Source: Sphingomonas taxi (GTDB lineage: Bacteria; Pseudomonadota; Alphaproteobacteria; Sphingomonadales; Sphingomonadaceae). Taken from it: a stretch of 64,000 bases of DNA. The position numbers and the translations under genes were made by a program. A model generated the notes under the pieces. The model did not search any database. It was given only the letters and a program-made list of their open reading frames with translations, and was not told the DNA's origin. How positions within the stretch are numbered: position 1 is the first letter of the stretch; every line of letters begins with the position of its first letter. This document shows positions 49,366-64,000 of the stretch, piece after piece. The DNA lies in assembly GCA_003243195.1 (NCBI GenBank), contig QFQI01000010.1, positions 13,196 through 77,195 on the forward strand. The letters are read 5' to 3'.

Positions 49366-50364
49366 CTATCGCGCCCCCGCCGCGTAGATCGCGTCCAGTA
49401 CCCGGGCGGTGGCGACATATTCCTGGGAGGCGGCATCGAACCGTGCGCCGGCGGCGAGGCGTTCCGCCCAGTCCACCGCCGCACGGCCGCCCCAATCGTC
49501 CGGCGGCAGCGCCAGCGTCTCGCGCGCGGTGCCGTGGAAATGCTCCGCGGTGAAGTCGTAGAACGAGCCGTCGACGTTGCGCAGTGCCGCACCGCCCTCG
49601 GTGCCGTAGAAAGCCGCCTCGATCACCGCATCCTGCCCGGCGTGCAGGCGCCACGAACAGGTCAGCCGGACGGTGACGCCATTCGCCAGCCGCACCGTGG
49701 CGGCGGCATAATCCTCCACCGCGTCATCCCGCAGCGGCGCGCCTCCGGCACGCAGCACCGCATCGACCCCGGCGACGTCGACGCCATCGGTCAGCCACAG
49801 GGCGAGGTCGGCGAGATGGATGCCGAGATCCATCACGCACCCGCCGCCGGCCTGCGCGCGATCGTAGAACCACGGCTTGTCGGGGCCATAGGCATTGTGG
49901 AACGTCAGGTCGATCGCGAACAGCCGGCCCAGCGCGCCGCCCCGCACGAGCGGCGCGATCCGCTGCATGCCGGCGGTGAAGCGGTAGGACAGGTCGACGC
50001 CCAGCAGGCGATCGGCACGGCGCGCGGCCGCGACGACCCCCGCCGTCTCCGCCGCGTCGCGCCCCAGCGGCTTCTGGCAAAACACCGCCGTGCCCGCCTC
50101 CAGTGCCTGGATCGACTGCGCAGCGTGCATCGCGCTGGGCGTGGCGATCACCACGCCGTCCAGACCCAGCGCCAGCAACTCCTCCAGCGAGCCGCACGGC
50201 TGCGCATCGGGGGCCAGGGCGCGCGCCTCGGCGAGCATCGCGGCGGACGGATCGCTGATCGCGGCGGCGTCGATGCGGCCGCCCGCGATCATCGCCGCCA
50301 TGCGATGCCGGCCGATCCAGCCGGTGCCCAGAAATCCAACGCGCGGTTTGATGTCCGTCGCCAT
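49366..50364 (-). CDS. Gfo/Idh/MocA family oxidoreductase
   Basis: 332 aa. N-terminal Rossmann motif VGFLGTGWIG and the EKP-like CQKPL motif. Confidence 0.8.
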   Translation of the reverse strand: MATDIKPRVGFLGTGWIGRHRMAAMIAGGRIDAAAISDPSAAMLAEARALAPDAQPCGSLEELLALGLDGVVIATPSAMHAAQSIQALEAGTAVFCQKPLGRDAAETAGVVAAARRADRLLGVDLSYRFTAGMQRIAPLVRGGALGRLFAIDLTFHNAYGPDKPWFYDRAQAGGGCVMDLGIHLADLALWLTDGVDVAGVDAVLRAGGAPLRDDAVEDYAAATVRLANGVTVRLTCSWRLHAGQDAVIEAAFYGTEGGAALRNVDGSFYDFTAEHFHGTARETLALPPDDWGGRAAVDWAERLAAGARFDAASQEYVATARVLDAIYAAGAR

Positions 50365-50446
50365 TCGTCCTGCTACCTGTCTGCGCGCGGTTCGCGGTCG
50401 CCGATGGACGATCCGCCCTCTTTCATGCCCCGGGGTCGGTGCGACC

Positions 50447-51415
50447 TCAGTCGAACATCACCAACGCCTTCACGAACCCGGTAGGCTTGTCGCGCGTCGC
50501 CGCGATCGCCTCGTTCAGCTCGCTCAGCGCAAAGCGATGCGTCAACAGCGGCGCAAGGTCGATGCGACCGCCCGCGACCGCCGCCACCGCCTCGTTCAGT
50601 CCGCGCAGATTGATGTGCCGGTCGCGTTCGTGCGCGTTGATCACGTCGATTCCCTTCCAGTTCCATTCCTGCATGTTCACCTGCCGTGGCCCGTCCTGAT
50701 GATAGCCCGCCACCACCAGCCGCCCGCCGAACCCGACGATCGCGCTGGCCAGGTCGAGCGGCCATTGCTTGCCGACCGCCTCGATCACGCGCGCGCACAG
50801 CGCCTCGCCGGTCAGTTGCTTCACACGCTCGATGATCGCCCAATGGTCGTCCATCGCGATCGTCTCGGCGGCGCCATAGGCGCGGGCGAGATCCAGCGAC
50901 TCGGACCGCCGCGAGATCGCGATCACCCGCGCGCCGGCGTCGCTCGCCAGCCTGGTCAGCACCGTGCCCAGAAAGCCGATCCCGACGATCGCCACCGTCT
51001 GCCCGGCGACCACATCGGCGCGGCGGAAGATGTTCATCGCGCACGCCAGCGGCTCGCCGGGGAAGGGTTGCCCGGCCAGTCCGGCGGGCAGCCGGACCAT
51101 CTGATCCGCATCCGCCACGTCCCAGGGGGCGAACGAATGCCCCGACAGCATCGTCACCCGGTCACCGATCGCGAAGCCCGCCACGTCCGCGCCCAGCGCG
51201 TCGATCGTGCCCCAGCCTTCGTGCCCCATGCCACCCGCCGCGCCGGGAAAGGTCGACCATGGCTGTCCCTCCCACGGCTCGATGTTCGACGCGCACACGC
51301 CGCACCCTTCCAGCCGCACGCGGACCTGGCCGGCGCGCGGCTGCGGCACCGGGACGCGTTCCACGACCATCCGCTGCGGCGCGACCAGCACCGCCGCCTC
51401 CATCGTCCGACCCAT
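50447..51415 (-). CDS. Zinc-dependent alcohol/polyol dehydrogenase (MDR family)
   Basis: ORF 50447..51688 trimmed to ATG 51415 (1-nt overlap with the upstream stop) or 51403. GCGVCASN, GHEGWG, VGIGFLG. Confidence 0.75.
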   Translation of the reverse strand: MGRTMEAAVLVAPQRMVVERVPVPQPRAGQVRVRLEGCGVCASNIEPWEGQPWSTFPGAAGGMGHEGWGTIDALGADVAGFAIGDRVTMLSGHSFAPWDVADADQMVRLPAGLAGQPFPGEPLACAMNIFRRADVVAGQTVAIVGIGFLGTVLTRLASDAGARVIAISRRSESLDLARAYGAAETIAMDDHWAIIERVKQLTGEALCARVIEAVGKQWPLDLASAIVGFGGRLVVAGYHQDGPRQVNMQEWNWKGIDVINAHERDRHINLRGLNEAVAAVAGGRIDLAPLLTHRFALSELNEAIAATRDKPTGFVKALVMFD

Positions 51416-52332
51416 CAGGCGACCGCGACCGTGGCGGGGGCGGTGGCCGGCGCGTAGCGGTCGATCATCCAGGCGCAGAAGTCCGCGAACGCCTGCGGAT
51501 CGCGCGCCGCGCTGGTGTGGTGCGGCTGGATTCCGAGATGTTCGGGCGTGAAGCAGAAGGTCACGGTGGTGTCGAACTCCGCCAGCGCCTCCATCTGCCG
51601 GTCGAACCAGTCGATCGCGTCGGGACGGAAGCTGTCGGCCCATGACAAGCCGGTCCGCAGCTTCTTCGTGCCAAGCCGCCGCATCCACGCCACCGCGTCA
51701 TCCAGTCGCGGATCCTGATAATGGAACCACTGCATCAGCCCCATGTCGGCGGCGACCTTCGCATAGCTGTCCAGCGACGGCTTGGGCGTGCCGTCGGCGC
51801 GGATCAGCCCCATGTAGAAATGCCGGTAATAGCTGGACCCTTCCGCCTCGCGATGGCGGGTGGTGGCGCCCCATTCCTGCGGCAGATCGAACAGCGAATA
51901 CCAGAACACGCGCGGCACGCGCCCGATCAGCAGCTCGGCGGTCTTCTCGACCCCGAAGACCTGCACCTCCTCGGCGCCGAACGATCCCACGCCGACCTCG
52001 GTCACCCACACCGGCTTGTCGGTGACCGCCTCGATCTCGGCGATCTTGGCAGGCCATTCGTGGATCGACCACAGGTTCCAGTCGAGCGGGAAGCCGTGCA
52101 CCGCCAGCACGTCCACCACGTCCAGGCACCCGTGCCCCTGCAGCCGCTTCACCCACAGCGGGTCGATGGGTGACATGCCGCCCAGAACGCGCGTGACGTT
52201 GGGGTTGATTGCCGCGATCGCGGCGCCGGCGCGCGACACGGTGTCGGCGAACAGCGACCAGTCGGGATCGACCTCGGGATCCCAATGCGACTTGTTGTTC
52301 GGCTCGTTCCAGATCATCGCGGCTTCGATCAC
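51415..52332 (-). CDS. Glycoside-hydrolase-like TIM-barrel protein (clan GH-A-like NEP / TEVG motifs)
   Basis: 305 aa. IWNEPNN at residues 7-13 and VWVTEVG near residue 140. 4-nt overlap with the methyltransferase gene. No signal peptide. Confidence 0.55.
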   Translation of the reverse strand: MIEAAMIWNEPNNKSHWDPEVDPDWSLFADTVSRAGAAIAAINPNVTRVLGGMSPIDPLWVKRLQGHGCLDVVDVLAVHGFPLDWNLWSIHEWPAKIAEIEAVTDKPVWVTEVGVGSFGAEEVQVFGVEKTAELLIGRVPRVFWYSLFDLPQEWGATTRHREAEGSSYYRHFYMGLIRADGTPKPSLDSYAKVAADMGLMQWFHYQDPRLDDAVAWMRRLGTKKLRTGLSWADSFRPDAIDWFDRQMEALAEFDTTVTFCFTPEHLGIQPHHTSAARDPQAFADFCAWMIDRYAPATAPATVAVA

Positions 52333-53135
52333 GCGCGCATCCCCCCGCTGAATGGATAGACCGCCGCCGGCCCGTGCTCAGCATAAGGCACGTCCGTGAC
52401 ACGGCAGAGATAGACGTCGTTCTGCGGATGCGCCTCGATCACGAAGCCGGCGGCGCGCAGCATCGCCTCCGAACAGGCGCGGTTGGGCGCCCACCAATTG
52501 GTCCAGTCGCCCGCGAACTTCCGCTCGATGAAGTGCATCTTCGGATAGCTGGCATCGTCGAAATAGGCGGGCGGCGTCCAGGTGCCGGGCACGTAGAAGG
52601 GATGGTCCTCCGGCACCTCGCCCACGTCGCGCGATCCCTGCTGCATCGTCTGGAACAGCATCAGATCGCCCGCGACATGCTCGCGGATCAGGTCCAGCGC
52701 CAGCAACGGGTGGCGCAGGTGGTAGAGCACGCCCATGAAGATCACGAGGTCGAAGCGCTCACCGAGCTGCGCGACGTCATAGACCGACAGCTTGCGGAAC
52801 TCGACGCTGTCGCCGAAGCCCAGCGCCGCGCTGGCCAGTCGCGCCTGCGCCAGATAGCGTTCGTCCCAGTCGATGCCGACCACGCGCGCCGAGCCGCGCC
52901 GCTTCATCTCGACCGAATAGAAGCCCGCGTTGCAGCCGATATCCAGCACCGTCCGCCCGGACAGGTCTGCGGGCAGGCAGGCACCGAATTCGGCGAACTT
53001 GTTGGCGGGATAATCCTGGAGGAAATGGTCGGGCGCGGTTTCGACGCCGCCCGGCAGATGGATGTTGTGAAACCACGGCGCGAGCGCTTCCACCTGCTCG
53101 CGCAAGCCCCCGTTGGCCCGCGTGTCGGCCTGCAT
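52329..53135 (-). CDS. SAM-dependent methyltransferase, CmoB/DUF1698-like (TIGR04290-type)
   Basis: ORF 52329..53192 trimmed to ATG 53135 (AAAGGGG RBS; the promoter lies inside the longer ORF). WFHNIHLPGG, VLDIGCNAGFYSVEM, GVLYHLRHP. Confidence 0.75.
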   Translation of the reverse strand: MQADTRANGGLREQVEALAPWFHNIHLPGGVETAPDHFLQDYPANKFAEFGACLPADLSGRTVLDIGCNAGFYSVEMKRRGSARVVGIDWDERYLAQARLASAALGFGDSVEFRKLSVYDVAQLGERFDLVIFMGVLYHLRHPLLALDLIREHVAGDLMLFQTMQQGSRDVGEVPEDHPFYVPGTWTPPAYFDDASYPKMHFIERKFAGDWTNWWAPNRACSEAMLRAAGFVIEAHPQNDVYLCRVTDVPYAEHGPAAVYPFSGGMRA

Positions 53136-53165
53136 CTTGTCCCCTTTACCCGCAATCGTTTCGCC

Positions 53166-53190
53166 AACGATCGGTCCGCGCCTGCGTTCC
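53166..53190 (-). promoter_or_regulatory. Consensus EcfG-type general stress promoter for the methyltransferase operon
   Basis: Minus strand reads GGAAC gcaggcgcggaccgat CGTT, an exact GGAAC-N16-CGTT. The -10 element ends 30 nt upstream of ATG 53135. Confidence 0.5.
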
Positions 53191-53250
53191 ATCTACTTAG
53201 CCTTATTGCCGGACGTGGAACCACCGCGCCTCTCGCGGCTTTGCGGGGTG

Positions 53251-54165
53251 ATGGAGGAACATAGCCGCCGCTGGACCGATGCGATGCGCGCGGAGCGCTT
53301 CGCCGACGCCTGGGCGGTGGAGCAAGCGGTGCTGGAGGCGCGCGACCTCGCCACCCGCGACGATCCGCGCCTGCCCTACCACCAGCGCTGGGTGTGGGAC
53401 GGCCGCCCGTTCTCCGGCCGCGATGTGCTGGTGCGCTGCTATCACGGGCTGGGCGACACCATCCAGTTCGCGCGCTTCCTTCCCACCCTGGCGGCGCGCG
53501 CGCGTTCGGTGACGGTGGAGGCACCGGCGCATTTGCATCCGCTGCTGCATTTCCCCGGCGTGACGCTGGCGGCGTTCGATCAGGCGCATCCGCTGCCATC
53601 GGCGGACTGCGATATTGAGATCACCGAACTGGCCTTTGCACTGCGGCTCGGCCCGCGCGACGTGCCCGCGCGCTACCTGCGCGCCGCCCCCGCCGCGCTG
53701 CCGGCGGGGACGATCGGCCTGTGCTACAAGGCCGGCGACTGGGATACCGCGCGCTGGGTGCCGCCCGCCATGCTCGCACCGGTCGTCGGGGGTCGCCCCG
53801 CGCTGTCGCTGGTTCCCGAGCCGTGCCCGCTGCCGGTGCGCAATCCGGATGGCTGCCCGCTCGACATCGCCGCCACCGCCGCGCTGGTCGCTGGCTGCGC
53901 GCTGGTGGTCACGGTCGACACGATGATCGCGCATCTGGCGGGTGCGCTCGGCCGTCCGACATGGCTGCTGCTGAAGGCCGCGCCCGACTGGCGGTGGGAT
54001 CCGGCACGGCGCGACAGCGGCTGGTATCCGACGATGCGCCTCTACGCGCAATCCACGTCCGGCGACTGGACTTCGGTGATCCGCGCCGTCGCCCACGACC
54101 TGTCCGCACAAGGGGAACACCATGGCCAGCCTGCCCAATCCGTCGGTGCCCGTCTCCTGGGGTGA
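53251..54165 (+). CDS. GT9/GT41-like glycosyltransferase domain protein
   Basis: ORF 53113..54165 trimmed to ATG 53251. VLVRCYHGLGDTIQFARFLP and VVTVDTMIAHLAGALGRPTWLLL..DWRW..WYPTMRLY are typical of the heptosyltransferase-like fold. Confidence 0.65.
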   Translation: MEEHSRRWTDAMRAERFADAWAVEQAVLEARDLATRDDPRLPYHQRWVWDGRPFSGRDVLVRCYHGLGDTIQFARFLPTLAARARSVTVEAPAHLHPLLHFPGVTLAAFDQAHPLPSADCDIEITELAFALRLGPRDVPARYLRAAPAALPAGTIGLCYKAGDWDTARWVPPAMLAPVVGGRPALSLVPEPCPLPVRNPDGCPLDIAATAALVAGCALVVTVDTMIAHLAGALGRPTWLLLKAAPDWRWDPARRDSGWYPTMRLYAQSTSGDWTSVIRAVAHDLSAQGEHHGQPAQSVGARLLG

Positions 54166-54520
54166 GTTGCTCGACAAGATCACCATCCTGGAGATCAAGC
54201 GCGAGCGGATCGCCCGCGCCGAGGCGCGCGCCAATGTCGCGCACGAACATTCGCTGCTGCAACGGATCGGCGCGGGCGTGCTGGCGGTGGACGGGATCGC
54301 GGCGCTGTTCGGCCGGCTGAAGTCGGTCAATCAGGACCTGTGGGACATCGAGGATGCGATCCGCCACCAGGAAGCGGCGCGCGCCTTTGGCGCCGAGTTC
54401 GTGCGGCTCGCACGATCGGTGTATCGCAAGAACGACGAACGCGCGGCGCTGAAGCGCGAGATCAACCTGGCGCTGGAATCGGAACTGATCGAGGAAAAGA
54501 GCTACGCCGGCACCGGATGA
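54122..54520 (+). CDS. DUF6165-like small protein
   Basis: 132 aa. VSWGELLDKITILEIKRERI and NQDLWDIEDAIR. Overlaps the upstream gene by 44 nt, or by 20 nt if it starts at GTG 54146. Confidence 0.6.
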   Translation: MASLPNPSVPVSWGELLDKITILEIKRERIARAEARANVAHEHSLLQRIGAGVLAVDGIAALFGRLKSVNQDLWDIEDAIRHQEAARAFGAEFVRLARSVYRKNDERAALKREINLALESELIEEKSYAGTG

Positions 54521-54532
54521 GGATGGCCGGGC

Positions 54533-55126
54533 CTATGATCGCGGCCGCTCGTTGAGCGCCACCAGCCGCGCGCCGTCACCTTCCAGCTCCAGCGTCGTCA
54601 CCGATCCCGGATCGCATCCCAGCGCGAAGATCCGCTCCAGCCCCAGCCCGAGATAATGCGCCACCACCCCGCGGATGATGTCGCAATGGGTGACGCACAC
54701 CGTCGCCCCCTCCCCCAGCGTCGCGACGAACCCGACCGCGCGGGCGACCGCCTCCGCCATCGTCTCGCCCCCCGGACAGCGCGCGGAGGCGCGTTCGGCA
54801 TTCCAGCGGTGCCAGTCGGGATCCCGCGCCAGCGCGTCAAAGCGCATGCCGGCGAAGCGGCCGAAATCCACCTCGTCCAGCGCCGGCGCGATCGCCACGC
54901 CTCCGCCGGCGACGGCGCGCCCGGCGACGATCGCCGCCGCGGTTTCGCGCGTGCGGGTGCGCGGGCTGCTGTAGATCGCGGTCGTCGCCATGCCGTCCAG
55001 ATGCCGCGCCACCGCCGCCGCCTCCGCGCGGCCGCGCGCGTCGAGCGCGATCGCGGAGCGACCGCTCAGCACATGGCCCACCTCGGCATGGCTGCCGTGC
55101 CGTATCAGAAGAACGCGCCGTTCCAT
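54533..55126 (-). CDS. Histidine phosphatase family protein (phosphoglycerate-mutase-like)
   Basis: ORF 54533..55162 trimmed to ATG 55126. LLIRHGSH (RHG catalytic motif), SSPRTRTRETA, VTHCDIIR. Confidence 0.8.
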   Translation of the reverse strand: MERRVLLIRHGSHAEVGHVLSGRSAIALDARGRAEAAAVARHLDGMATTAIYSSPRTRTRETAAAIVAGRAVAGGGVAIAPALDEVDFGRFAGMRFDALARDPDWHRWNAERASARCPGGETMAEAVARAVGFVATLGEGATVCVTHCDIIRGVVAHYLGLGLERIFALGCDPGSVTTLELEGDGARLVALNERPRS

Positions 55127-55189
55127 CGTCGCCGCATAGAACAGGCGGAGAGATGACACCAAGAAAATTGCATGTCCGTAACGGCTTCC

Positions 55190-55216
55190 GGAACAAAGCT
55201 ATGTAGAAGATGTTCC
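55190..55216. promoter_or_regulatory. Palindrome GGAACA-N15-TGTTCC in a divergent promoter region (reads GGAAC-N16-TGTT on both strands)
   Basis: Read directly: ccGGAACAaagctatgtagaagaTGTTCCag, in the AT-richer spacer between the phosphatase gene (start 55126) and the epimerase operon (start 55301). Confidence 0.3.
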
Positions 55217-55300
55217 AGCCTGTGTAATCAAGCAGCAACGATCGCCCGTGTCATTGATCCAAATCAATCGTCCGGCACGTGCGACGCGGGAGGGACCAGC

Positions 55301-56409
<1,109 letters not shown>

Positions 56410-56413
<4 letters not shown>

Positions 56414-57459
56414 CAGGCGCCGTGCTGGTCACCGGCGGCGCCGGCTTCATCGGATCGAACCTTGCCGACCGGCTGGCCGGCGAAGGTCATGACATCACGG
56501 TCTATGACGTGCTGGCGCGTGCCGGGGTCGAACGCAACCTGACATGGTTGCAGGAACGGCATGGCCCGCGCATCCGCTTCGTCCATGCCGACATCCGCGA
56601 CGCCGCGCGGCTGGCGGACGAAGTGGCGACGGCATCGGCGGTGTTCCATTTCGCCGCGCAGGTGGCGGTCACCACCAGCCTCGACGATCCGGCCGACGAT
56701 TTCACCACCAACATCGCCGGGACGTTCCAGTTGCTGGAGGCGCTGCGCACACGCGCGCCGCATGTGCCGTTGATCTTCGCGTCGACCAACAAGGTCTACG
56801 GCGATCTCTCCGACCTAGATTTCACGCTGGAGGACGGTGCCTATCGCCCGACTGATCCGCATGTCCGCGCCCATGGCATCGGCGAGGGCCGCCCGCTCGA
56901 CTTCCACACGCCCTATGGCGTGTCCAAGGGGGCGGCGGACCAGTATGTGCTCGATTACGCGCGCAGCTTCGGGTTGAAGACCTGCGTGTTCCGGATGAGC
57001 TGCATCTATGGCCAGCGCCAGATGGGCACGGAGGATCAGGGCTGGGTCGCGCATTTCCTGATCCGCGCGCTGAACGGCGAGCCGATCACCTTGTACGGCG
57101 ACGGGCATCAGGTACGCGACGTGCTCGACGTGCGCGACGCGGTGAACGCCTATGTCGCGGCCTGGCGGCGGATCGACAGCGTGGCGGGGCGCGCCTTCAA
57201 TCTCGGCGGGGGGCCGGACAATGCCGTCAGCCTGCGCCACCTGCTGGCGCAGATCGCGACGCTCACCGGGCGTCCGGTCGATGTCAGCTACGCCGACTGG
57301 CGCGCCGGAGACCAGCGCTATTTCGTCGCCGACGCGCGCGCGGCGCAGGCGGCGCTGGCGCTTCCGCCGCGCCGCGACTGGCGCGAGGGCGTGGCCGATC
57401 TGGCCGAATGGCTGCGGCGCGAGCACGCGGCCGAGCGCGCGATCGGCGTCGCCGCGTGA
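56410..57459 (+). CDS. NAD-dependent epimerase (CDP-paratose 2-epimerase-like extended SDR)
   Basis: ATG 56410 overlaps the upstream stop (ATGA). VLVTGGAGFIGSN, YGVSKGAADQY, QMGTEDQGWVAHF. Confidence 0.75.
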
Positions 57460-58541
57460 CGCGACGCCTGTTGATGACCGCCGACGCGATCGGCGGCGTC
57501 TGGCAATATGCGACCGGACTGGCGCACGATCTGGTGCGCGCGGGATGGTCGGTCGACATCGCGCTGCTCGGCCCCGCCGCATCGACGGCGCAGCGCGCGC
57601 AGGCGGCGACAGATGGCGTGACGCTGCTCGACACCGGACTGCCGCTCGACTGGCTGGCGCCCGACGCGGCGGTGGTGGCGACAGCGGCCGTGGCGATCGC
57701 GGATCTCGCCCGCGCGCGCGGTGCCGATCTGGTGCAGCTCAACCAGCCCGCGCTCGCCGTGGCCGACATCGGGGTGCCGGTCGTCGCGGTCGTGCATAGC
57801 TGCGTGGCGAGCTGGTGGGACGCGGTGGAGCAGGGTCCGCTGCCGGCCGATCTGGCGTGGCAGACCGATCTGGTCGCGCGCGGCCTGTCGCGCGCCGATG
57901 CGGTGGTGTGCCCCACCCGCGCCTTCGCCGATACGGTGGCGCGACTGTACGCGCTGCCGCACGCGCCGGTCGCGATCCACAATGGGCGTGCGCCGGCCGG
58001 GCCAGGCGGGCCGATCCACGACTTCGCCTTCACCGCCGGACGGCTGTGGGACCGGGGCAAGAATGTCGCGACGCTCGACCGCGCCGCCGCGCGGCTCGGG
58101 ATCCCGTTCAAGGCGGCGGGCGCACTCGCCGGGCCGAATGGCGAGCGGATCGCGCCGGCCCATCTCCAGACGCTCGGGCAGGTCGGTGATCCGGTCATCG
58201 CCGGCTGCCTGTCCGCGCGCCCGGTCTTCGCCTCCGCCGCGCTGTACGAACCGTTCGGCCTGGCGGTGCTGGAGGCGGCGCTGGCCGGCTGCGCGCTGGT
58301 GCTGTCCGATATCCCGACGTTCCGCGAATTGTGGGACGGGGTCGCCACCTTCGTCCCGGCCACCGACGCGATCGGCTTCGCCGACGCGATCGAGGCCGTG
58401 GCCGGCAATCCGGCGCTGCGCGCCGCGCGCGGCACGCTCGCGCGCGAGCGGGCGCTGGCCTATTCCCCGGATCGCAACGCCGCGGCGATGGTCGCGCTGT
58501 TCGAGCGCGTGTCGGGTGCACACCGACGGGTCGCGGCATGA
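57456..58541 (+). CDS. Glycosyltransferase family 4 (GT-B)
   Basis: GTG 57456 (GTGA overlap) or ATG 57474. The C-terminal EPFGLAVLEAALAGCALV is the GT4 E-x7-E region. Confidence 0.75.
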   Translation: MTRRLLMTADAIGGVWQYATGLAHDLVRAGWSVDIALLGPAASTAQRAQAATDGVTLLDTGLPLDWLAPDAAVVATAAVAIADLARARGADLVQLNQPALAVADIGVPVVAVVHSCVASWWDAVEQGPLPADLAWQTDLVARGLSRADAVVCPTRAFADTVARLYALPHAPVAIHNGRAPAGPGGPIHDFAFTAGRLWDRGKNVATLDRAAARLGIPFKAAGALAGPNGERIAPAHLQTLGQVGDPVIAGCLSARPVFASAALYEPFGLAVLEAALAGCALVLSDIPTFRELWDGVATFVPATDAIGFADAIEAVAGNPALRAARGTLARERALAYSPDRNAAAMVALFERVSGAHRRVAA

Positions 58542-59647
58542 ACATCGTTTATTTCACGCACAGCCTGTCGTCATGCTGGAACCACGGCAACGCGCATTTC
58601 CTGCGCGGCGTCATGTCGGAGCTGATCGCGCGCGGGCACGACGTGCGCGTCCACGAACCCGAAGGGGCGTGGAGCCTCGCCAACCTGCTGGCCGACAATG
58701 GCGAGGCGGGGCTGGATGCCTATCGCGCCCATTACCCCGAATTGTCCTCGCAGACGTTCGCGCCCGATGCCGACGTGGAGGCGCTGGTCGACGGTGCCGA
58801 TCTGGTGATCGTCCACGAATGGAACGACCATGGTCTGGTCGCGCGGCTCGGCGCGCTGCGGCGGCGCGGGGCGCGCTTCACCCTGCTGTTCCACGATACG
58901 CATCACCGCGCGGTCAGCGCGCCCGAGGAGATGCGCGGCTACGATCTGGACGGTTACGACGGCGTGCTGGCGTTCGGCGAGGCGCTGTCGCGCGTCTATC
59001 GCGGCTGGGGCTGGGGCGACCGGGTGTGGACGTGGCACGAGGCGGCCGACACGCGGCGTTTCTTCCCGATCGACGCGGAGGAGCGCGCCGGGCTGGTATG
59101 GATCGGCAACTGGGGCGATGGCGAGCGTACCGCCGAGATCGAACATTATCTGCTCGCCCCCGCGCGCGCCGCCGAACTGCCGCTCGACATCTACGGCGTC
59201 CGCTACCCGGACGCGGGCAAGGCGATGCTCGCCGACTATGGCGCGCGCTATCACGGCTGGGCGCCCAACGCCGCCGCGCCCGCGATCTTCGCGCGCGCGC
59301 TGGCCACCGTCCACGTGCCGCGCCGCTATTACACGACGATCCTGCCCGGCATCCCGACGATCCGCGTGTTCGAGGCGCTGGCATGCGGCCTGCCGCTCGC
59401 CTCGGCACCGTGGGACGATGCGGAAGGATTGTTCCGCCCCGGCCGCGACTTCCTGTTCGCGCATTCGCCGGACGAGATGACGCAGATCCTGACGCACCTG
59501 CGCGACGACGCGAACCTGCGCGCGTCGCTCGCCGCATCGGGGCTGGAGACGATCCGGTCGCGCCACACCTGCGCGCACCGCGTCGACGAACTGCTGGCGA
59601 TACTCGCCTCCCTCTCCCCCCTGCCGCCACGGAGCACCGCCGCGTGA
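58538..59647 (+). CDS. CgeB-like glycosyltransferase (Glyco_trans_1_2-type C-terminus), paralogue 1
   Basis: ATG 58538 (ATGA overlap). MNIVYFTHSLSSCWNHGNAHFLRGV and RVFEALACGLPLASAPW. Confidence 0.65.
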   Translation: MNIVYFTHSLSSCWNHGNAHFLRGVMSELIARGHDVRVHEPEGAWSLANLLADNGEAGLDAYRAHYPELSSQTFAPDADVEALVDGADLVIVHEWNDHGLVARLGALRRRGARFTLLFHDTHHRAVSAPEEMRGYDLDGYDGVLAFGEALSRVYRGWGWGDRVWTWHEAADTRRFFPIDAEERAGLVWIGNWGDGERTAEIEHYLLAPARAAELPLDIYGVRYPDAGKAMLADYGARYHGWAPNAAAPAIFARALATVHVPRRYYTTILPGIPTIRVFEALACGLPLASAPWDDAEGLFRPGRDFLFAHSPDEMTQILTHLRDDANLRASLAASGLETIRSRHTCAHRVDELLAILASLSPLPPRSTAA

Positions 59648-60732
59648 AGATCGCCTTCTACGGATCCAGCCTGCTGTCGTCCTACTGGAACGGTGCGGCG
59701 ACATACTATCGCGGCATCCTGCGCGCGCTGGGCGAGCGCGGCTACGACATCGCCTTCTACGAACCCGACGCGTTCGACCGCCAGCAGCACCGCGACATCG
59801 ATCCGCCCGCCTACGCCAGGGTCGTCGTCTATCCCGCGACGCCCGAGGCGCTGCGCGGGGTGCTGGCGGAGGCCGCCGACGCCGATGTGGTGGTGAAGGC
59901 CAATGGCGTGGGCGTGTTCGACCGCGAGCTGCTGGAGGGCATCATCGCGCACGCGCGGCCAGACGCGCTGAAGATCTTCTGGGACGTGGATGCCGCCGCC
60001 ACGCTGGACGAGATGCGCGCCGACCCCCACCATCCGGTGCGCGCCGCGCTGCCGCACCTCGACATGGTGCTGACCTATGGCGGCGGCGATCCGGTGGTGG
60101 ACGCCTATCGCGCATTCGGCGCGACGCTGTGCGCGCCGGTCTACAACGCGCTCGATCCGCAGACCCATCATCCGGTGCCCGCCGACGATCGCTTCGCCTG
60201 CGATCTCGCGTTCCTGGGCAACCGCCTGCCCGACCGCGAGGCGCGGGTGGAGGAGTTCTTCCTGCGCGCCGCGGCGCTGTTGCCCGGACGGCAGTTCCTG
60301 ATCGGCGGCAACGGGTGGGAGAGCAAGGCGATGCCCGGCAACGTCCGCCACCGTGGCCATGTCTTCACCGCCGAGCACAATGCCTTCAACTGCACGCCCA
60401 AGGCGGTGCTGAACGTCGCGCGCGATTCGATGGCACATATCGGCTTTTCGCCCGCGACGCGCGTGTTCGAGGCGGCGGGCGCGGCGGCGTGCCTCATCAC
60501 CGACGCATGGGAAGGGATCGAACTGTTCCTGACCCCGGACAGCGAAGTGCTGGTCGCGCGCGACGGGCAGGATGTCGCGGACCACCTCGCCGCGCTGACG
60601 CCGGCGCGCGCGCAGGCGATCGGACAGGCGGCGCTGCGCCGCGTGCTGGCCGAACACACCTATGACCTGCGTGGTGCGCAGGTCGACGCGCTGTTCCGGG
60701 CGCATGCCGCGCGGGCGCGGGAGGCGGCGTGA
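59644..60732 (+). CDS. CgeB-like glycosyltransferase, paralogue 2
   Basis: GTG 59644 (GTGA overlap). VKIAFYGSSLLSSYWNGAATYYRGI and RVFEAAGAAACLITDAW. The 1003-aa ORF in the track is a 5' extension. Confidence 0.65.
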   Translation: MKIAFYGSSLLSSYWNGAATYYRGILRALGERGYDIAFYEPDAFDRQQHRDIDPPAYARVVVYPATPEALRGVLAEAADADVVVKANGVGVFDRELLEGIIAHARPDALKIFWDVDAAATLDEMRADPHHPVRAALPHLDMVLTYGGGDPVVDAYRAFGATLCAPVYNALDPQTHHPVPADDRFACDLAFLGNRLPDREARVEEFFLRAAALLPGRQFLIGGNGWESKAMPGNVRHRGHVFTAEHNAFNCTPKAVLNVARDSMAHIGFSPATRVFEAAGAAACLITDAWEGIELFLTPDSEVLVARDGQDVADHLAALTPARAQAIGQAALRRVLAEHTYDLRGAQVDALFRAHAARAREAA

Positions 60733-61817
60733 TGAAGCTGGTCGTCCTGGGCCTGTCGCTCAGCTCCAGTTGGGGCAACGGCCATGCCACCACCTTCCGC
60801 GCGCTGCTGCGCGCGTTCGCGGCGCGCGGGCATGAAGTGCTGTTCCTCGAACGCGACATGCCCTGGTATGCCGATCACCGCGACGAACCGGCGCCCGATT
60901 ACTGCCGCCTCGACCTGTACGACAGCCTCGACGCGCTGGAAGGCTGGCGCACGGAGATCGAGCAGGCCGATGCGGTGATGGTCGGCTCCTATGTGCCCGA
61001 CGGCATCGAGGTGGGACGGCTGGTGCAGCGATGGGCGCGCGGCGTCACCAGCTTCTACGACATCGACACCCCGGTGACGCTCGCCCGCCTCGTGCGCGGG
61101 ACGTGCGACTATGTCTCGGCGGCGGTGATCCCCGGCTATGACATCTATTTCTCGTTCACCGGCGGTCCCACGCTGCGGCTGATCGAGGAGCGTTATGGCG
61201 CGCCGGCCGCGCGTGCGCTTTATTGCTCGGTGGACGCCGACCGCTATCGCCCGACCGGCGCGGCGGCGCGCTGGGACCTGTCGTATCTCGGCACCTACAG
61301 CGACGATCGCCAGCCGACGCTGGAACGGCTGCTGATCGAGCCGGCGCGCCGCCACCCCGACCGGCGTTTCGTCGTCGCCGGCCCGCAATATCCCGCCACG
61401 ATGGACTGGCCCGGCAATGTCGAGCGGATCGAGCATCTCGCGCCGGCCGACCATGCCGATTTCTACTCCGCGAGCCGCGCGACGCTGAACGTCACGCGTG
61501 CGGACATGATCGCGGCCGGCTGGTCGCCATCGGTGCGGCTGTTCGAGGCGACCGCCTGCGGCACGCCGATCGTGTCGGATCGCTGGCCGGGCATCGAGGA
61601 GCTGCTGACCCCCGGCAGCGAGATCCTGCTCGCCGACAGCGGCGCGGACGTGGACGCGGCACTCGCCCGCGACGACCTCGCCACGATCGGCGCGGCGGGG
61701 CGCGCGCGCGTGCTGGCCGAGCACACCGCGCGTCACCGTGCCGCGGAGCTGGAGTCGCACCTGCGCGAAGCGGCCGCGGAACGCGCGGCGCCGATCGGCG
61801 CACGGGTCGTCATCTGA
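60729..61817 (+). CDS. CgeB-like glycosyltransferase, paralogue 3
   Basis: GTG 60729 or ATG 60732, overlapping the upstream stop. MKLVVLGLSLSSSWGNGHATTFRAL and RLFEATACGTPIVSDRW. Confidence 0.65.
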   Translation: MMKLVVLGLSLSSSWGNGHATTFRALLRAFAARGHEVLFLERDMPWYADHRDEPAPDYCRLDLYDSLDALEGWRTEIEQADAVMVGSYVPDGIEVGRLVQRWARGVTSFYDIDTPVTLARLVRGTCDYVSAAVIPGYDIYFSFTGGPTLRLIEERYGAPAARALYCSVDADRYRPTGAAARWDLSYLGTYSDDRQPTLERLLIEPARRHPDRRFVVAGPQYPATMDWPGNVERIEHLAPADHADFYSASRATLNVTRADMIAAGWSPSVRLFEATACGTPIVSDRWPGIEELLTPGSEILLADSGADVDAALARDDLATIGAAGRARVLAEHTARHRAAELESHLREAAAERAAPIGARVVI

Positions 61818-62008
61818 GCGGCGCTTCGCCGCAAGGTGTCGCCGCCTAGCCCCGGGCGACACGGTCGCGACGGCGGCGCCCGGGATCACCAAGGCTTTCG
61901 CGACGGGCCGACCCGCCGCCAGCATTAGGACGATGCGCTCGGCCAGCGTCGCGGTGACATGGAGTAAGGAAGGCGGCGGCGAGCCCATCTGCCTGCGCTC
62001 CTACAATG

Positions 62009-62035
62009 AAAAAGGCCAGCGCCGTAGCGCTGGCC
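62009..62035 (-). terminator. Rho-independent terminator oriented on the minus strand
   Basis: Minus strand: GGCCAGCGC-TACG-GCGCTGGCC followed by TTTTT. The plus strand has only TTATCT after the stem. Confidence 0.75.
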
Positions 62036-62160
62036 TTATCTGGTGCGTACTGACGCTTGTTAACCGCCAGACCGCGATCTCTGAGCCTTCAGAATAGCTA
62101 TGCTCATGCGCGGGTCAAGGCATTTTCCGTATCGCGTCCGAAACGGCGCTGATCGTAAGG
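62009..62160 (-). ncRNA. Candidate tracrRNA (5' end uncertain), divergent from cas9
   Basis: There is no minus-strand ORF here. Minus-strand read: ..GGAAAAUGCCUUGACCCGCGCAUGAGCAUAGCUAU UCUGA-AGGC-UCAGA (hairpin 62080-62093), a second stem UCUGG..CCAGA (62039-62071), then the terminator hairpin plus U5. This layout matches anti-repeat, nexus and 3' hairpins. Confidence 0.4.
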
Positions 62161-62309: not shown

Positions 62310-64000
62310 ATGGCGGGAGGCGACGTGACGAACTGGCGTCTGGGTATCGACTTGGGGACGAACTCGCTCGGCTGGGCGGCGCTGCGGCTTGGCGCTGACG
62401 GCCGGCCGGCCGGCATCATTGCGGCGGGCTCCCGTATCTTCTCGGACGGACGCGATCCGAAATCGGGTGCGTCACTGGCGGTGGACCGCCGCGAGGCACG
62501 CGCGATGCGGCGGCGGCGCGACCGCTTCCAGCAGCGCCAGCGCGCGTTGATGAAATATCTGGTCGCCGACGGCCTGTTCCCCGCCGAGCGCGAGGAACGG
62601 CGCGGGCTGGAAACGCTCGATCCGTTCATGCTGCGCGCAACCGCGCTGGACGAGGCGCTGCCGCTCCATCACCTCGGGCGCGCGATCTGGCACCTCAACC
62701 AGCGGCGCGGCTTCAGGTCGAACCGCAAGACCGATCGGCCCGACGACGACAGCGGCAAGATCAAGGTCGCGGTCGGGCGACTGCGCGACGCGATGGATGC
62801 GGCGGGCGCGCGCACGTTCGGCGAGTGGCTCCACCAGCGCCGTCAGCCGAGCGAGGACCATCCCGACGGCCTGCCCGTCCGCACCCGGCTGCGCGCCGAG
62901 CCGGGCGACAATGCCAAGGGCACCGGCTATGATTTCTATCCCGATCGCGCATTGCTGGAGGATGAGTTCGACGCGATCTGGTCCGCACAGGCCGAACATC
63001 ATCCCGACGTGCTGACCCCGGAGGTGCACGATCGCCTGTACGAGATCGTCTTCCATCAGCGCCCGCTGAAGACGCCGCAGGTCGGCACCTGCACCTTCGG
63101 CAGCGGCGAGCCACGATTGCCCAAGGCGCACCCGCTGTTCCAGCGTCGCCGGCTGCTGGAGGAACTCAATGCGCTGAGGATCGTGCGCGCCGGGCAGGTC
63201 GCCGAGCGGCTGACCCCCGAGCAGCGCGACCTCCTGCTGCTGAAGCTGAAGAGCAAGGGCAAGGTCAGCTTCGAGAGCCTGCGCAAGGTGCTGAAGCTCG
63301 ACCCCGACGCGCGCTTCAACAAGGAGAGCGAGAACCGCACCGAGTTGAAGGGCGACGAGGTGGCGGCGGCGATGCTGACGAAGACGCGGCTCGGCAACCG
63401 CTGGGAACATCTGTCGCCGGACGAGCAGTGGGAGGTCATCGAGCGGCTGGAAAGCGCCGAAAGCGACGAACAGGTCGAGGCGTTCCGGGCATGGGTGGCG
63501 ACGCGGTTCGATCTCAGCGGCGAGCAGGCCGTGGCGATATCGGCGGCGCGTCTGCCGCAGGGCCATGGACGCTTCGGCGAGACCGCCACGCGCGGGCTGA
63601 TCGACGCGCTGACGCATGATCGCGACCCTGACGGCCGCGTGATCGTCTACAGCGAGGCGGTGGCGCGGCTGGGCTATCACCACAGCGACTTCCGCACCGA
63701 CCAGACTTACGACGAACTGCCTCCCTACCCCGAGATCCTCGAACGCCACCTCATGCCCGGCAGCGGCGATCCGGCGGAAAAGGATATCTTCAAGCGGCTG
63801 GGCCGGCTCACCAACCCGACCGTCCATATCGGGCTGAACCAGTTGCGACGCACCGTCAACCGCCTGATCGCGCACCATGGCCGCCCCGCCGAGATCGCGA
63901 TCGAGCTGGCGCGCGAGCTGAAGCTGACCGAGGACGAGAAGAAGGAGCTTGGCCGCCGCAACCGCCAGAACCGCGAGGAGGCCGAGCGGCGATCGCGCGC
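62310..64000 (+). CDS. cas9: CRISPR-associated endonuclease Cas9, N-terminal ~563 aa (type II, probably II-C); continues beyond the window
   Basis: Frame open from the stop at 62226 to 64000. ATG 62310 follows a GGGGAGA RBS. MAGGDVTNWRLGIDLGTNSLGWAAL (RuvC-I, Asp14), Arg-rich bridge helix DRREARAMRRRRDRFQQRQRAL, FHQRPLKTPQVGTCTF, LTNPTVHIGLNQLRRTVNRLI, and EIAIELAREL (RuvC-II). Confidence 0.9.
   Translation, partial: MAGGDVTNWRLGIDLGTNSLGWAALRLGADGRPAGIIAAGSRIFSDGRDPKSGASLAVDRREARAMRRRRDRFQQRQRALMKYLVADGLFPAEREERRGLETLDPFMLRATALDEALPLHHLGRAIWHLNQRRGFRSNRKTDRPDDDSGKIKVAVGRLRDAMDAAGARTFGEWLHQRRQPSEDHPDGLPVRTRLRAEPGDNAKGTGYDFYPDRALLEDEFDAIWSAQAEHHPDVLTPEVHDRLYEIVFHQRPLKTPQVGTCTFGSGEPRLPKAHPLFQRRRLLEELNALRIVRAGQVAERLTPEQRDLLLLKLKSKGKVSFESLRKVLKLDPDARFNKESENRTELKGDEVAAAMLTKTRLGNRWEHLSPDEQWEVIERLESAESDEQVEAFRAWVATRFDLSGEQAVAISAARLPQGHGRFGETATRGLIDALTHDRDPDGRVIVYSEAVARLGYHHSDFRTDQTYDELPPYPEILERHLMPGSGDPAEKDIFKRLGRLTNPTVHIGLNQLRRTVNRLIAHHGRPAEIAIELARELKLTEDEKKELGRRNRQNREEAERRSR

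Follow-up and report, generated by a model that had tools for sequence, protein, structure and literature searches.

A conserved thirteen-gene cluster of Sphingomonas taxi with a circularly permuted GH39-like glycosidase: a candidate pathway to a stress-induced methylated glycoside

Our analysis of a 64,000-nucleotide stretch of the Sphingomonas taxi contig QFQI01000010.1 (hereafter 'the window', in whose own numbering all positions are given) suggests to regard thirteen genes at positions 49366-61817 as an orphan pathway conserved across phyla, the enzyme families and general logic of which are already known. We tentatively propose, granting it slightly less than an even chance, that this pathway assembles, in the cytoplasm, an oligosaccharide or glycoside that is short, defined and methylated, that it is induced by stress, and that it follows the logic of synthase/phosphatase pathways, every chemical step being one that we infer.

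In the sequence of steps that we envisage, two extended short-chain dehydrogenases/reductases (SDRs), the 4-epimerase-like SDR1 and the C2-epimerase-like SDR2 (glucose-to-mannose type), would tailor common nucleotide sugars, and in most relatives UXS, a UDP-glucuronate decarboxylase (UDP-xylose synthase), would supply UDP-xylose. The glycosyltransferase (GT) GT4 would then join a nucleotide sugar to a phosphorylated acceptor, probably myo-inositol phosphate where the cluster encodes the myo-inositol-phosphate synthase MIPS, and here an acceptor made elsewhere. A histidine phosphatase would strip the phosphate, as in the synthesis of sucrose phosphate, trehalose phosphate, glucosyl-3-phosphoglycerate and N-acetylglucosaminyl-inositol phosphate. 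Three non-redundant CgeB-like GT-B enzymes would each add one sugar (CgeB3 probably xylose where UXS is present), a GT9-like/DUF6165 pair may provide an optional decoration, the S-adenosylmethionine (SAM)-dependent TIGR04290 methyltransferase (MT) would methylate the product, and a permuted GH39-like glycosidase (GH) would trim, recycle or transglycosylate it. Finally, a Gfo-like oxidoreductase (Gfo) and a polyol-dehydrogenase-like enzyme (ADH) may carry out an oxidation and a reduction at a position in the ring of the glycoside or cyclitol, with sigma-EcfG probably driving both operons.

Gene content and the core shared across phyla

Since the window has a G+C content of ~70%, mechanical lists of open reading frames are rich in artefacts, and coding frames were chosen by analysis of codon-position G+C content (GC3) together with inspection of start codons, while domains were assigned by Pfam and NCBIfam scans. 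The thirteen genes and the domain assignments of a first-pass annotation, made from the letters alone, were thereby borne out, and the five consecutive 4-nt start/stop overlaps that it had reported between SDR1 and CgeB3 (ATGA, GTGA, ATGA, GTGA, GTGA) are real, being read directly from the sequence: the six-gene SDR1-CgeB3 operon is translationally coupled. A metagenome contig is 99.97% identical to the window over 13.3 kb, and the best homologues are otherwise 86-87% identical. Rfam yielded zero matches in the cluster region, and a scan for sigma-70 promoters and terminators nothing useful within the cluster.

The operon opens with SDR1 (55301-56413, plus strand; 370 aa), in which PF01370 matches in two stretches and which carries a ~45-residue insert. 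It is nucleotide-sugar 4-epimerase-like and resembles UDP-hexose/UDP-HexNAc 4-epimerases, with 6wjb/6wj9 as best solved relative (150 bits), followed by UDP-glucose 4-epimerases; its identity in sphingomonads is 65-97%. SDR2 (56410-57459, plus; 349 aa; PF01370, 182 bits) aligns over its full length (residues 5-337) with 9rl0 (271 bits) and 1orr (260 bits), of which 9rl0 is TaTyvE of Thermodesulfatator, an enzyme that interconverts CDP-glucose and CDP-mannose (PMC13098431). SDR2 is a close relative of the CDP-tyvelose 2-epimerases and is predicted to be a nucleotide-sugar C2 epimerase. The full-length alignment is shared with the TyvE enzymes of S. Typhi and Thermodesulfatator, the latter epimerising nucleotide-glucose to nucleotide-mannose, but no 3,6-dideoxyhexose genes lie near SDR2, so that its substrate is probably a common nucleoside diphosphate hexose.

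The candidate priming enzyme GT4 (57456-58541, plus; 361 aa; alternative start 57474; PF13439 and PF13692) is the least conserved member (40-70% identity), and its best solved relatives, PimA (47 bits) and the sucrose-phosphate synthase Tll1590, match in the donor-binding domain only. PimA has an inositol-lipid acceptor, and these two relatives lend weaker evidence to the proposed pathway. It is followed by CgeB1 (58538-59647, plus; 369 aa; 125 bits to PF13524), CgeB2 (59644-60732, plus; 362 aa; 131 bits), which is the most conserved glycosyltransferase (67-91% identity in sphingomonads), and the candidate xylosyltransferase CgeB3 (60729-61817, plus; 142 bits), which comprises 362 aa, or 361 aa from the ATG at 60732, the start with which an exact protein match was found. 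When compared with CgeB of Bacillus subtilis, the three proteins share strong matches to PF13524 (125-142 bits) and a GT-B-like character, but stand in no sporulation context and are anciently diverged tandem paralogues. No solved structure matches CgeB2 by sequence in a search of the PDB. An AF2 model of CgeB2, for which all three paralogues were used, reaches a pLDDT of only 64. The Foldseek neighbours of this low-confidence model are the retaining GT4-type GT-B enzymes ManT (of methylmannose polysaccharide), MshA, BshA, GlgM and OtsA (TM ~0.5; top ManT 7qsg, TM ~0.54), cytoplasmic enzymes whose acceptors are small and soluble; they are taken to support the predicted GT-B fold only. Divergent from this operon runs the gene of the phosphatase (54533-55126, minus; 197 aa), a member of the histidine-phosphatase superfamily (PF00300, 134 bits) whose closest solved relatives are the true phosphatases PspA, CobC and PhoE, not mutases.

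The second main operon, MT-GH-ADH-Gfo on the minus strand, begins with MT (52329-53135; 268 aa), which matches TIGR04290 with 355 bits (cut-off 300) over model positions 2-226 of 226 and is 63-86% identical across 80 genome loci. Its start is probably 53135 and not 53192, because homologues have 260-270 aa and a promoter motif occupies 53166-53190. GH (51415-52332; 305 aa; PF11790, 24 bits with a cut-off of 21) overlaps MT by 4 nt and ADH by 1 nt, and is translationally coupled to MT. ADH (50447-51415; 322 aa; PF00107 and PF08240) is a Zn-dependent polyol/ketose-reductase-like dehydrogenase with the ketose reductase 1e3j and sorbitol dehydrogenases as closest solved relatives. Gfo, a Gfo/Idh/MocA oxidoreductase (49366-50364; 332 aa; PF22725 and PF01408), has its best solved relatives among dehydrogenases of glycosides or sugar rings (6jw6 with 92 bits, DgpA, 1,5-anhydrofructose reductase), with inositol dehydrogenases scoring below these; in some loci its gene is relocated to the opposite end of the GT operon. 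Between MT and the phosphatase, on the plus strand, lie the putative GT9-like glycosyltransferase (53251-54165; 304 aa; alternative start 53284), with a short PF01075 match (residues 204-238, 26 bits), and a DUF6165 protein (54122-54520; 132 aa; PF19662, 37 bits; weak DUF4254 match).

A genome scan with MT returned at least 588 confirmed matches, of which 80 loci (designated L001 etc. below) were kept for gene mapping; genes downstream of MT were counted over the 60 loci with at least 5.5 kb on that side, and upstream genes over the 59 loci with at least 9.5 kb. The cluster is widespread in Sphingomonadales with a stable gene order, and median identities to the window proteins extend from 48% (phosphatase) up to 81% (SDR1). 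Downstream, GH is present in 58/60 loci and ADH and Gfo in 44/60 each. Upstream, SDR1 occurs in 47/59, SDR2 in 49, GT4 in 48, CgeB1 and CgeB2 in 50 each, CgeB3 in 51, and the phosphatase in 47, GT4 and the His_Phos_1 phosphatase occurring together in 47/59 loci as they do in the window. The GT9-like gene was found in 19/59 loci and DUF6165 in 15/59, always with the GT9-like gene. As regards the co-occurrence of the TIGR04290 methyltransferase with CgeB-like glycosyltransferases, a check recommended by the first-pass annotation, CgeB paralogues are present in 50-51 of the 59 loci as well as in Acidobacteria and in a metagenome-assembled genome (MAG) of Hyphomicrobiales. The view of the cluster given in that annotation needs qualification: GT9-like/DUF6165 (15-19/59) and ADH/Gfo (44/60) are accessory, and MIPS and UXS are frequent members elsewhere.

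MIPS (PF01658; 467 bits to TIGR03450, below the strict cut-off) belongs to the cluster in 39/60 loci, and UXS, an SDR with 350 bits to human UXS1, in 42/59. In eight loci (family f16) CgeB3 and UXS are fused in frame, for example as a 699-aa protein at L031:1513-3612 (minus), and this 'Rosetta-stone' fusion suggests that CgeB3 uses UDP-xylose. Neither MIPS nor UXS was found when both were mapped against the whole 64-kb window, so that the cluster of the window represents a reduced form.

The same genes recur in other phyla and arrangements. The Hyphomicrobiales MAG carries on one strand SDR2, a B12-binding radical SAM gene of family TIGR04295, GT4, CgeB1-3, UXS, MIPS, MT, GH and a hexose kinase, UXS and MIPS thus lying between the glycosyltransferases and MT-GH. 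Two Acidobacteria genomes contain a block SDR1-SDR2-TIGR04295-GT4-CgeB-CgeB-CgeB and, facing it, a second block with a CgeB gene, a sugar-1-phosphate nucleotidyltransferase, MT, a GT9-like gene and a phosphatase of the HAD type. Pairwise BLAST against the window proteins yielded collinear 1:1 orthology in Acidobacteria, with identities of 47% (SDR1), 48.5% (SDR2), 31% (GT4), 49% (CgeB1, at the equivalent position), 52% (CgeB2), 54% (CgeB3) and 59% (MT); the GT9-like protein is 34% identical to the product of the gene after MT. The core shared across phyla hence consists of the 4-epimerase-like SDR, the CDP-tyvelose-2-epimerase-like SDR, GT4, three CgeB-like GT-B enzymes, the TIGR04290 methyltransferase and a phosphatase, and ADH and Gfo are not present in the clusters of other phyla. 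Gene-for-gene conservation across phyla, together with 50-90% protein identity across the order, implies strong selection on the cluster.

The phosphatase offers the plainest example of a non-orthologous replacement: it is His_Phos_1 in Alphaproteobacteria and of the HAD type at the equivalent place in Acidobacteria, which argues that dephosphorylation is an integral step. The notion of a phosphorylated primer, voiced in the first-pass annotation, is strengthened by this exchange and by the MIPS gene within the cluster of 39/60 relatives. The three CgeB paralogues are mutually only 23-35% identical and have separate orthologues across phyla, so that their triplication is older than the dispersal of the cluster, and each copy has retained a role of its own. 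These conserved distinct roles speak in turn against a homopolymer and in favour of a defined oligosaccharide.

TIGR04295, with 623 and 696 bits in the clusters orthologous to this one (Acidobacteria and the Hyphomicrobiales MAG; L075, L085 and L086), was not found between SDR2 and GT4 of the window, where these two genes overlap by 4 nt, and occurs in 1/59 genome loci. As 'hypothetical equivalog' models without a given function exist for both TIGR04290 and TIGR04295 ('B12_rSAM_oligo'), database curators have already noticed this neighbourhood, which has been called the 'rhizo-twelve system'. MT of the window is a member of the first family, while the radical SAM gene is lacking in the window and in almost all sphingomonad loci.

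Candidate stress promoters and a permuted glycosidase

An EcfG-type promoter-like motif, GGAAC-N16-CGTT, is located at 53166-53190 (minus), 31 nt upstream of the ATG of MT; the strict pattern GGAAC-N15-18-CGTT has two matches in the window, this site and 8309-8332 (plus). A palindromic motif of the same type, GGAAC-N17-GTTCC, occupies 55190-55216 between the phosphatase gene and the GT operon and is a candidate bidirectional stress promoter; a palindrome of this form is reported to fire in both directions in Erythrobacter litoralis (10.1101/641647). Among the relatives, GGAAC-N16-18-(C/T)GTT was found ~80-90 nt upstream of SDR1 in 36/60 loci, and EcfG-type motifs upstream of the phosphatase in 17/56 and upstream of MT in 19/80, the latter being without exception loci in which an intergenic region precedes MT itself, and the sequence of the spacer is not conserved among them; the background is zero upstream of five internal genes and 4/178 in other intergenic regions of the same loci. 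The motifs at both main operon starts are conserved across genera and, like their distances, fit the EcfG motif of S. melonis (GGAAC-N17-20-GTT, mostly within 100 bp of the coding sequence; PMC6599016). Both operons are thus probably transcribed by sigma-EcfG under general-stress control, which we infer from sequence since the cluster could not be tied to published regulon tables.

Two further elements were seen in these intergenic regions. A weaker EcfG-like site, GGAAC-N17-CTTT, lies at 53218-53243 (plus) upstream of the GT9-like gene, where L001, L002 and L021 have GGAAC-N18-CGTT; if this site is real, the start of the GT9-like protein would be 53284 rather than 53251. A purine-rich element whose conservation extends across genera, (A/T)GAAGAAGAAGC, is found at 55195-55215 and in the phosphatase-SDR1 spacers of ~50 loci. 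In Sphingomonas it overlaps with the spacer of the promoter, in Allosphingosinicella it is shifted ~25-30 nt downstream, and it could be the site of a second regulator or a 5'-untranslated element.

The glycosidase deserves separate consideration. Its chain begins at what is ordinarily an internal motif: all 65 orthologues start seven residues before the acid/base motif WNEPN, directly after the stop codon of MT. The best sequence match in the PDB is PslG, aligned from PslG residue 132 onward, with a weak second segment in which the C-terminus of GH matches PslG residues 102-130. When the sequence of GH is re-permuted, the alignment with PslG spans the junction and its E-value improves from 0.0065 to 0.00097, while the Pfam score gains marginally (24.3 to 26.1 bits). 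Among 1.8 billion cluster representatives, 1372 relatives were retrieved in both permuted and canonical forms: the permuted ones (~300-317 aa) share 39-43% identity with the query in a collinear alignment, and for each of the canonical forms examined (314-346 aa) residues 1-196 of the query match residues ~111-304 and its residues 197-294 match residues ~10-109. These reciprocal two-segment alignments to non-permuted relatives show a circular permutation in which barrel strands 4-8 precede strands 1-3. The AF2 model of GH (pLDDT 79, pTM 0.83; eight strands and eight helices) comprises a complete eight-stranded barrel. A Foldseek search with this model returned generic TIM barrels with low TM scores and is uninformative for the family, because order-dependent alignment fails on a permutation.

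With PslG and the GH39 enzymes of clan GH-A the protein shares the (beta/alpha)8 barrel, the NEP acid/base motif and the TE(V/T)G nucleophile motif. It differs in starting at strand 4, with strands 1-3 placed C-terminally, in comprising 305 aa without an extra domain, and in having no signal peptide, PslG being periplasmic. Acid/base residue E10 (WNEPN) and nucleophile E112 (TEVG) align to the PslG motifs and are invariant in 40 sequences, so that GH is probably active. The earlier call of a GH-like TIM barrel was correct and is now amended to a circularly permuted GH39-like barrel. Homologues of GH bear the automatic database name beta-xylosidase, which would fit the link to UXS and is suggestive.

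A proposed cytoplasmic product and its alternatives

A Kyte-Doolittle hydropathy scan detected no N-terminal signal-like segment in any of the thirteen products. The sole hydrophobic stretches are internal to the Rossmann-type ADH, the GT9-like protein and GT4, where they are read as buried beta-strands, and the initial impression of products without signal peptides or transmembrane (TM) helices is upheld in so far as no convincing TM helix was seen. No initiating polyprenyl-phosphate glycosyl or phosphoglycosyl transferase (WbaP/WecA type) is evident in the cluster from Pfam matches or as a TM-like product, and no flippase, polymerase, ABC exporter or OPX/PCP protein was found in the flanks of the window, in the 80 genome loci or in the two Acidobacteria loci, the flanks of the latter consisting of housekeeping genes. 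Among all predicted open reading frames of the 80 loci, no family with at least three hydrophobic segments recurs in more than four loci (the multi-TM families checked were ion or solute transporters, namely MFS, amino-acid permease, NhaA, Nramp, PHO4 and Na/H exchanger). The first-pass statement that the cluster has no priming transferase, Wzx/Wzy/Wza or ABC exporter can accordingly be extended to its flanks and to all of these loci, and its argument against a classical capsule, exopolysaccharide or O-antigen locus gains from the recurrent lack of such genes, while it remains one from negative evidence. The only recurrent membrane protein of the cluster is a small DUF1003 protein. Its gene, which is read from the other strand, separates ADH from the glycosidase or MIPS gene in 19/60 loci (e.g., L003:11689-12288, minus; L031:12883-13443, minus); the window has none.

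Such a catalogue of soluble enzymes could also serve the envelope. Less probable than the cytoplasmic pathway, yet a serious contender, is an envelope glycoconjugate made by GT-B enzymes at the inner membrane face: a glycolipid head group (with diacylglycerol, ceramide or an inositol lipid as its anchor, for example) or a polysaccharide that leaves the cell through machinery encoded elsewhere. In support of this alternative, the best solved relative of GT4 is PimA, which works peripherally on phosphatidylinositol. The glycosphingolipids of sphingomonads bear up to four sugars, a number that can be compared with the four GT-B enzymes encoded here alongside 4- and 2-epimerases. Moreover, the DUF1003 membrane protein lies within the cluster where it occurs, and a polysaccharide pyruvyl transferase (PF04230) and an FrhB-like protein (PF04422/PF04432), a pairing more typical of surface polysaccharides, accompany GT9-like/DUF6165 in 11-12 loci. 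Both occur in L010, L011, L017, L020, L027, L033, L036, L038, L039 and L049, and in L039 and L049 all four genes are contiguous, while the window has GT9-like/DUF6165 alone. However, the 82 loci share no recurrent gene for lipid synthesis or for a CDP-alcohol phosphatidyltransferase, flippase, polymerase or exporter; the core is also found in Acidobacteria and Hyphomicrobiales, not known for sphingomonad glycosphingolipids; and a dedicated phosphatase of either fold better fits a soluble phospho-intermediate. To our knowledge, UXS and MIPS are likewise unlike the known sugars of sphingomonad glycolipids. As the cluster occurs in Acidobacteria, the idea of a glycosphingolipid head group, with four sugars and four glycosyltransferases, is retained merely as one form of the envelope alternative.

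It is also conceivable, if rather improbable, that two or three separate modules have been co-inherited vertically: a nucleotide-sugar/GT operon, GT9/DUF6165, and a module of MT, GH and the dehydrogenases for the modification or catabolism of some glycoside or cyclitol (e.g., a plant xyloside or inositol). MT-GH-ADH-Gfo indeed stands alone in L003-L006, and GT9/DUF6165 accompanies MT-GH without the GT operon in L020, L027, L036 and L038; the beta-xylosidase name of GH homologues and the resemblance of Gfo to catabolic glycoside 3-dehydrogenases such as DgpA would suit a catabolic module. Methylobacterium has only the phosphatase and MT. In M. nonmethylotrophicum (L076:8961-10696) these two genes adjoin each other and are followed by one for a FUSC-family membrane protein, with no GT operon within 10 kb, which hints that phosphatase and MT form a minimal functional pair. 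Set against separate modules are (i) the position of MT next to the SDR/GT operon in Sphingomonadales, the Hyphomicrobiales MAG and Acidobacteria alike, three lineages that differ in their gene arrangement, (ii) ADH-Gfo genes that have moved to the far end of the GT operon in L029, L057, L063 and L064 and yet stay in the cluster, (iii) promoter motifs of the same type on both operons, (iv) the lack of a conserved uptake transporter in the 80 loci, and (v) the biosynthetic rather than catabolic nature of a methyltransferase and MIPS.

Cytoplasmic protein glycosylation, in the manner of CgeB in the Bacillus spore crust or of GT9/GT41-like enzymes on adhesins, would be compatible with the solubility of all enzymes in the hydropathy scan. 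CgeB, the namesake of PF13524, is a spore-surface glycosylation factor, and the GT9-like fold family includes protein heptosyltransferases. This explanation is nevertheless highly improbable: no conserved candidate acceptor protein is found in or beside the cluster in any lineage examined, the neighbouring chemoreceptor gene is conserved in just 2/80 loci, and phosphatase, MIPS and glycosidase are not features of known loci of this kind.

A number of considerations weigh against the cytoplasmic, stress-induced pathway proposed here. (i) No product, intermediate or phenotype is known for the cluster. (ii) The window lacks MIPS, UXS and any nucleotidyltransferase. (iii) In ~9-12 of 59 sphingomonad loci the MT-GH module is more than 10 kb from any GT operon, so that the two modules are separable. 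(iv) The sphingomonad loci are phylogenetically related, and their counts overstate independence. (v) The hydropathy scan is crude compared with SignalP or TMHMM, exporters may be unlinked, and the absence of export genes is negative evidence from which a product staying in the cytoplasm is deduced; PimA-like GT-B enzymes act on membrane lipids without TM helices, and peripheral GT-B enzymes may decorate such lipids. (vi) Searches by annotation words and neighbouring locus tags did not find the cluster genes in the EcfG regulon tables of S. melonis Fr1, Sphingopyxis granuli TFA and E. litoralis DSM 8509, where the orthologues are possibly absent or otherwise named. Entries of these tables named 'beta-xylosidase' and 'Zn-ADH' were rejected as orthologues, their neighbours being unrelated.

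As for the flanking DNA, the left side carries the chemoreceptor gene, an ApbE/DUF4198/DUF2271/PepSY set, Lrp, alanine dehydrogenase and MdoG/MdoH, and no neighbour on either side of the window cluster is conserved beside it elsewhere in the 80 loci. MdoH and MdoG, of osmoregulated periplasmic glucan synthesis (39570-42892, minus), lie ~7 kb from the cluster and were rejected as a linked export function, since they are adjacent to it in none of these loci. A type II CRISPR-Cas locus begins 493 bp past CgeB3. The plus strand at 62310-64000 encodes the N-terminus of Cas9, including the RuvC-I motif, and the window ends inside cas9; a 468-aa minus-strand frame (62472-63878), considered as a membrane partner, was rejected as an antisense artefact of this gene. 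In identical contigs (L081:11579-16146; L083:6744-7988), cas9 is followed by cas1, cas2 and a CRISPR array that has at least twenty 36-nt repeats (ACTATAGACCCTCAGAGATCGCGGTCCAGCGGCAAC). As cas9 is found at this position in none of the 80 related loci, the CRISPR-Cas locus is a strain-level insertion. A candidate tracrRNA at 62005-62095 (minus), which has no Rfam match, includes a segment (62059-62085) that matches the reverse complement of the repeat at 23/26 bases, and is accompanied by a promoter-like site on the minus strand (62118-62091) and a strong terminator hairpin (62037-62012).

Relation to known systems and wider meaning

In its outline, the cluster resembles the glycoside pathways that pair a synthase with a phosphatase, namely sucrose-phosphate synthase/phosphatase, OtsA/OtsB, GpgS/GpgP of the mycobacterial methylglucose lipopolysaccharide (MGLP) and MshA/MshA2, in that a soluble retaining GT-B enzyme stands beside a dedicated phosphatase. 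MshA of mycothiol synthesis uses inositol phosphate, and most relatives of the cluster encode an enzyme that makes it. Further parallels are the interchangeable fold of the phosphatase (histidine-type here, HAD in Acidobacteria) and, probably, a stress-regulated expression. The differences are that no close homologue of those systems is encoded (GT4 scores 30-47 bits to sucrose-phosphate synthase and PimA), and that three CgeB-like glycosyltransferases, a methyltransferase, a glycosidase and two dehydrogenases are present in addition. The mycobacterial systems for methylmannose polysaccharide (ManT, MeT1, MeT3, MmpH) and MGLP likewise cluster a GT-B enzyme, a SAM methyltransferase and a TIM-barrel hydrolase without export genes. 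Here, however, the phyla are others, the methyltransferase is CmoB-like (TIGR04290) and not of the MeT1/MeT3 type, and three distinct glycosyltransferases take the place of a single polymerising one, together with nucleotide-sugar epimerases, UXS and MIPS. The resemblance seen is one of fold, ManT (7qsg) being the top Foldseek neighbour of the low-confidence CgeB2 model, and PDB searches with GT4, CgeB2 and the phosphatase returned no sequence-level match to ManT, MeT1, MeT3, MmpH, GpgS or GpgP.

Literature searches found nothing on TIGR04290, TIGR04295, DUF6165 or 'rhizo-twelve', no link of CgeB with UDP-xylose synthase or of CgeB with glycosyltransferase and inositol, and nothing relevant on inositol-1-phosphate synthase in Sphingomonas. 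No member is orthologous to an enzyme of a characterised pathway, and the first-pass remark that no characterised product of this gene set is known can be maintained.

It is tempting to speculate further, to a degree that we ourselves regard as doubtful, that the product is an undescribed protective stress metabolite of soil and leaf bacteria from at least two phyla: a short methylated hetero-oligosaccharide on a dephosphorylated primer, mostly inositol and often with xylose, made by way of the CgeB-like trio and the permuted GH39-like enzyme. In soil, on leaf surfaces and in other dry habitats, few bacteria are as abundant as sphingomonads and Acidobacteria. A protective glycoside or oligosaccharide induced by stress would, if confirmed, represent a new class of bacterial stress metabolites, and would provide the CgeB-like glycosyltransferase family with a function outside spore formers as well as a physiological role for TyvE-like C2 epimerases and for bacterial UDP-xylose and inositol-phosphate synthases. 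Finally, the permuted GH39-like barrel offers a clean natural case of circular permutation in a TIM barrel.

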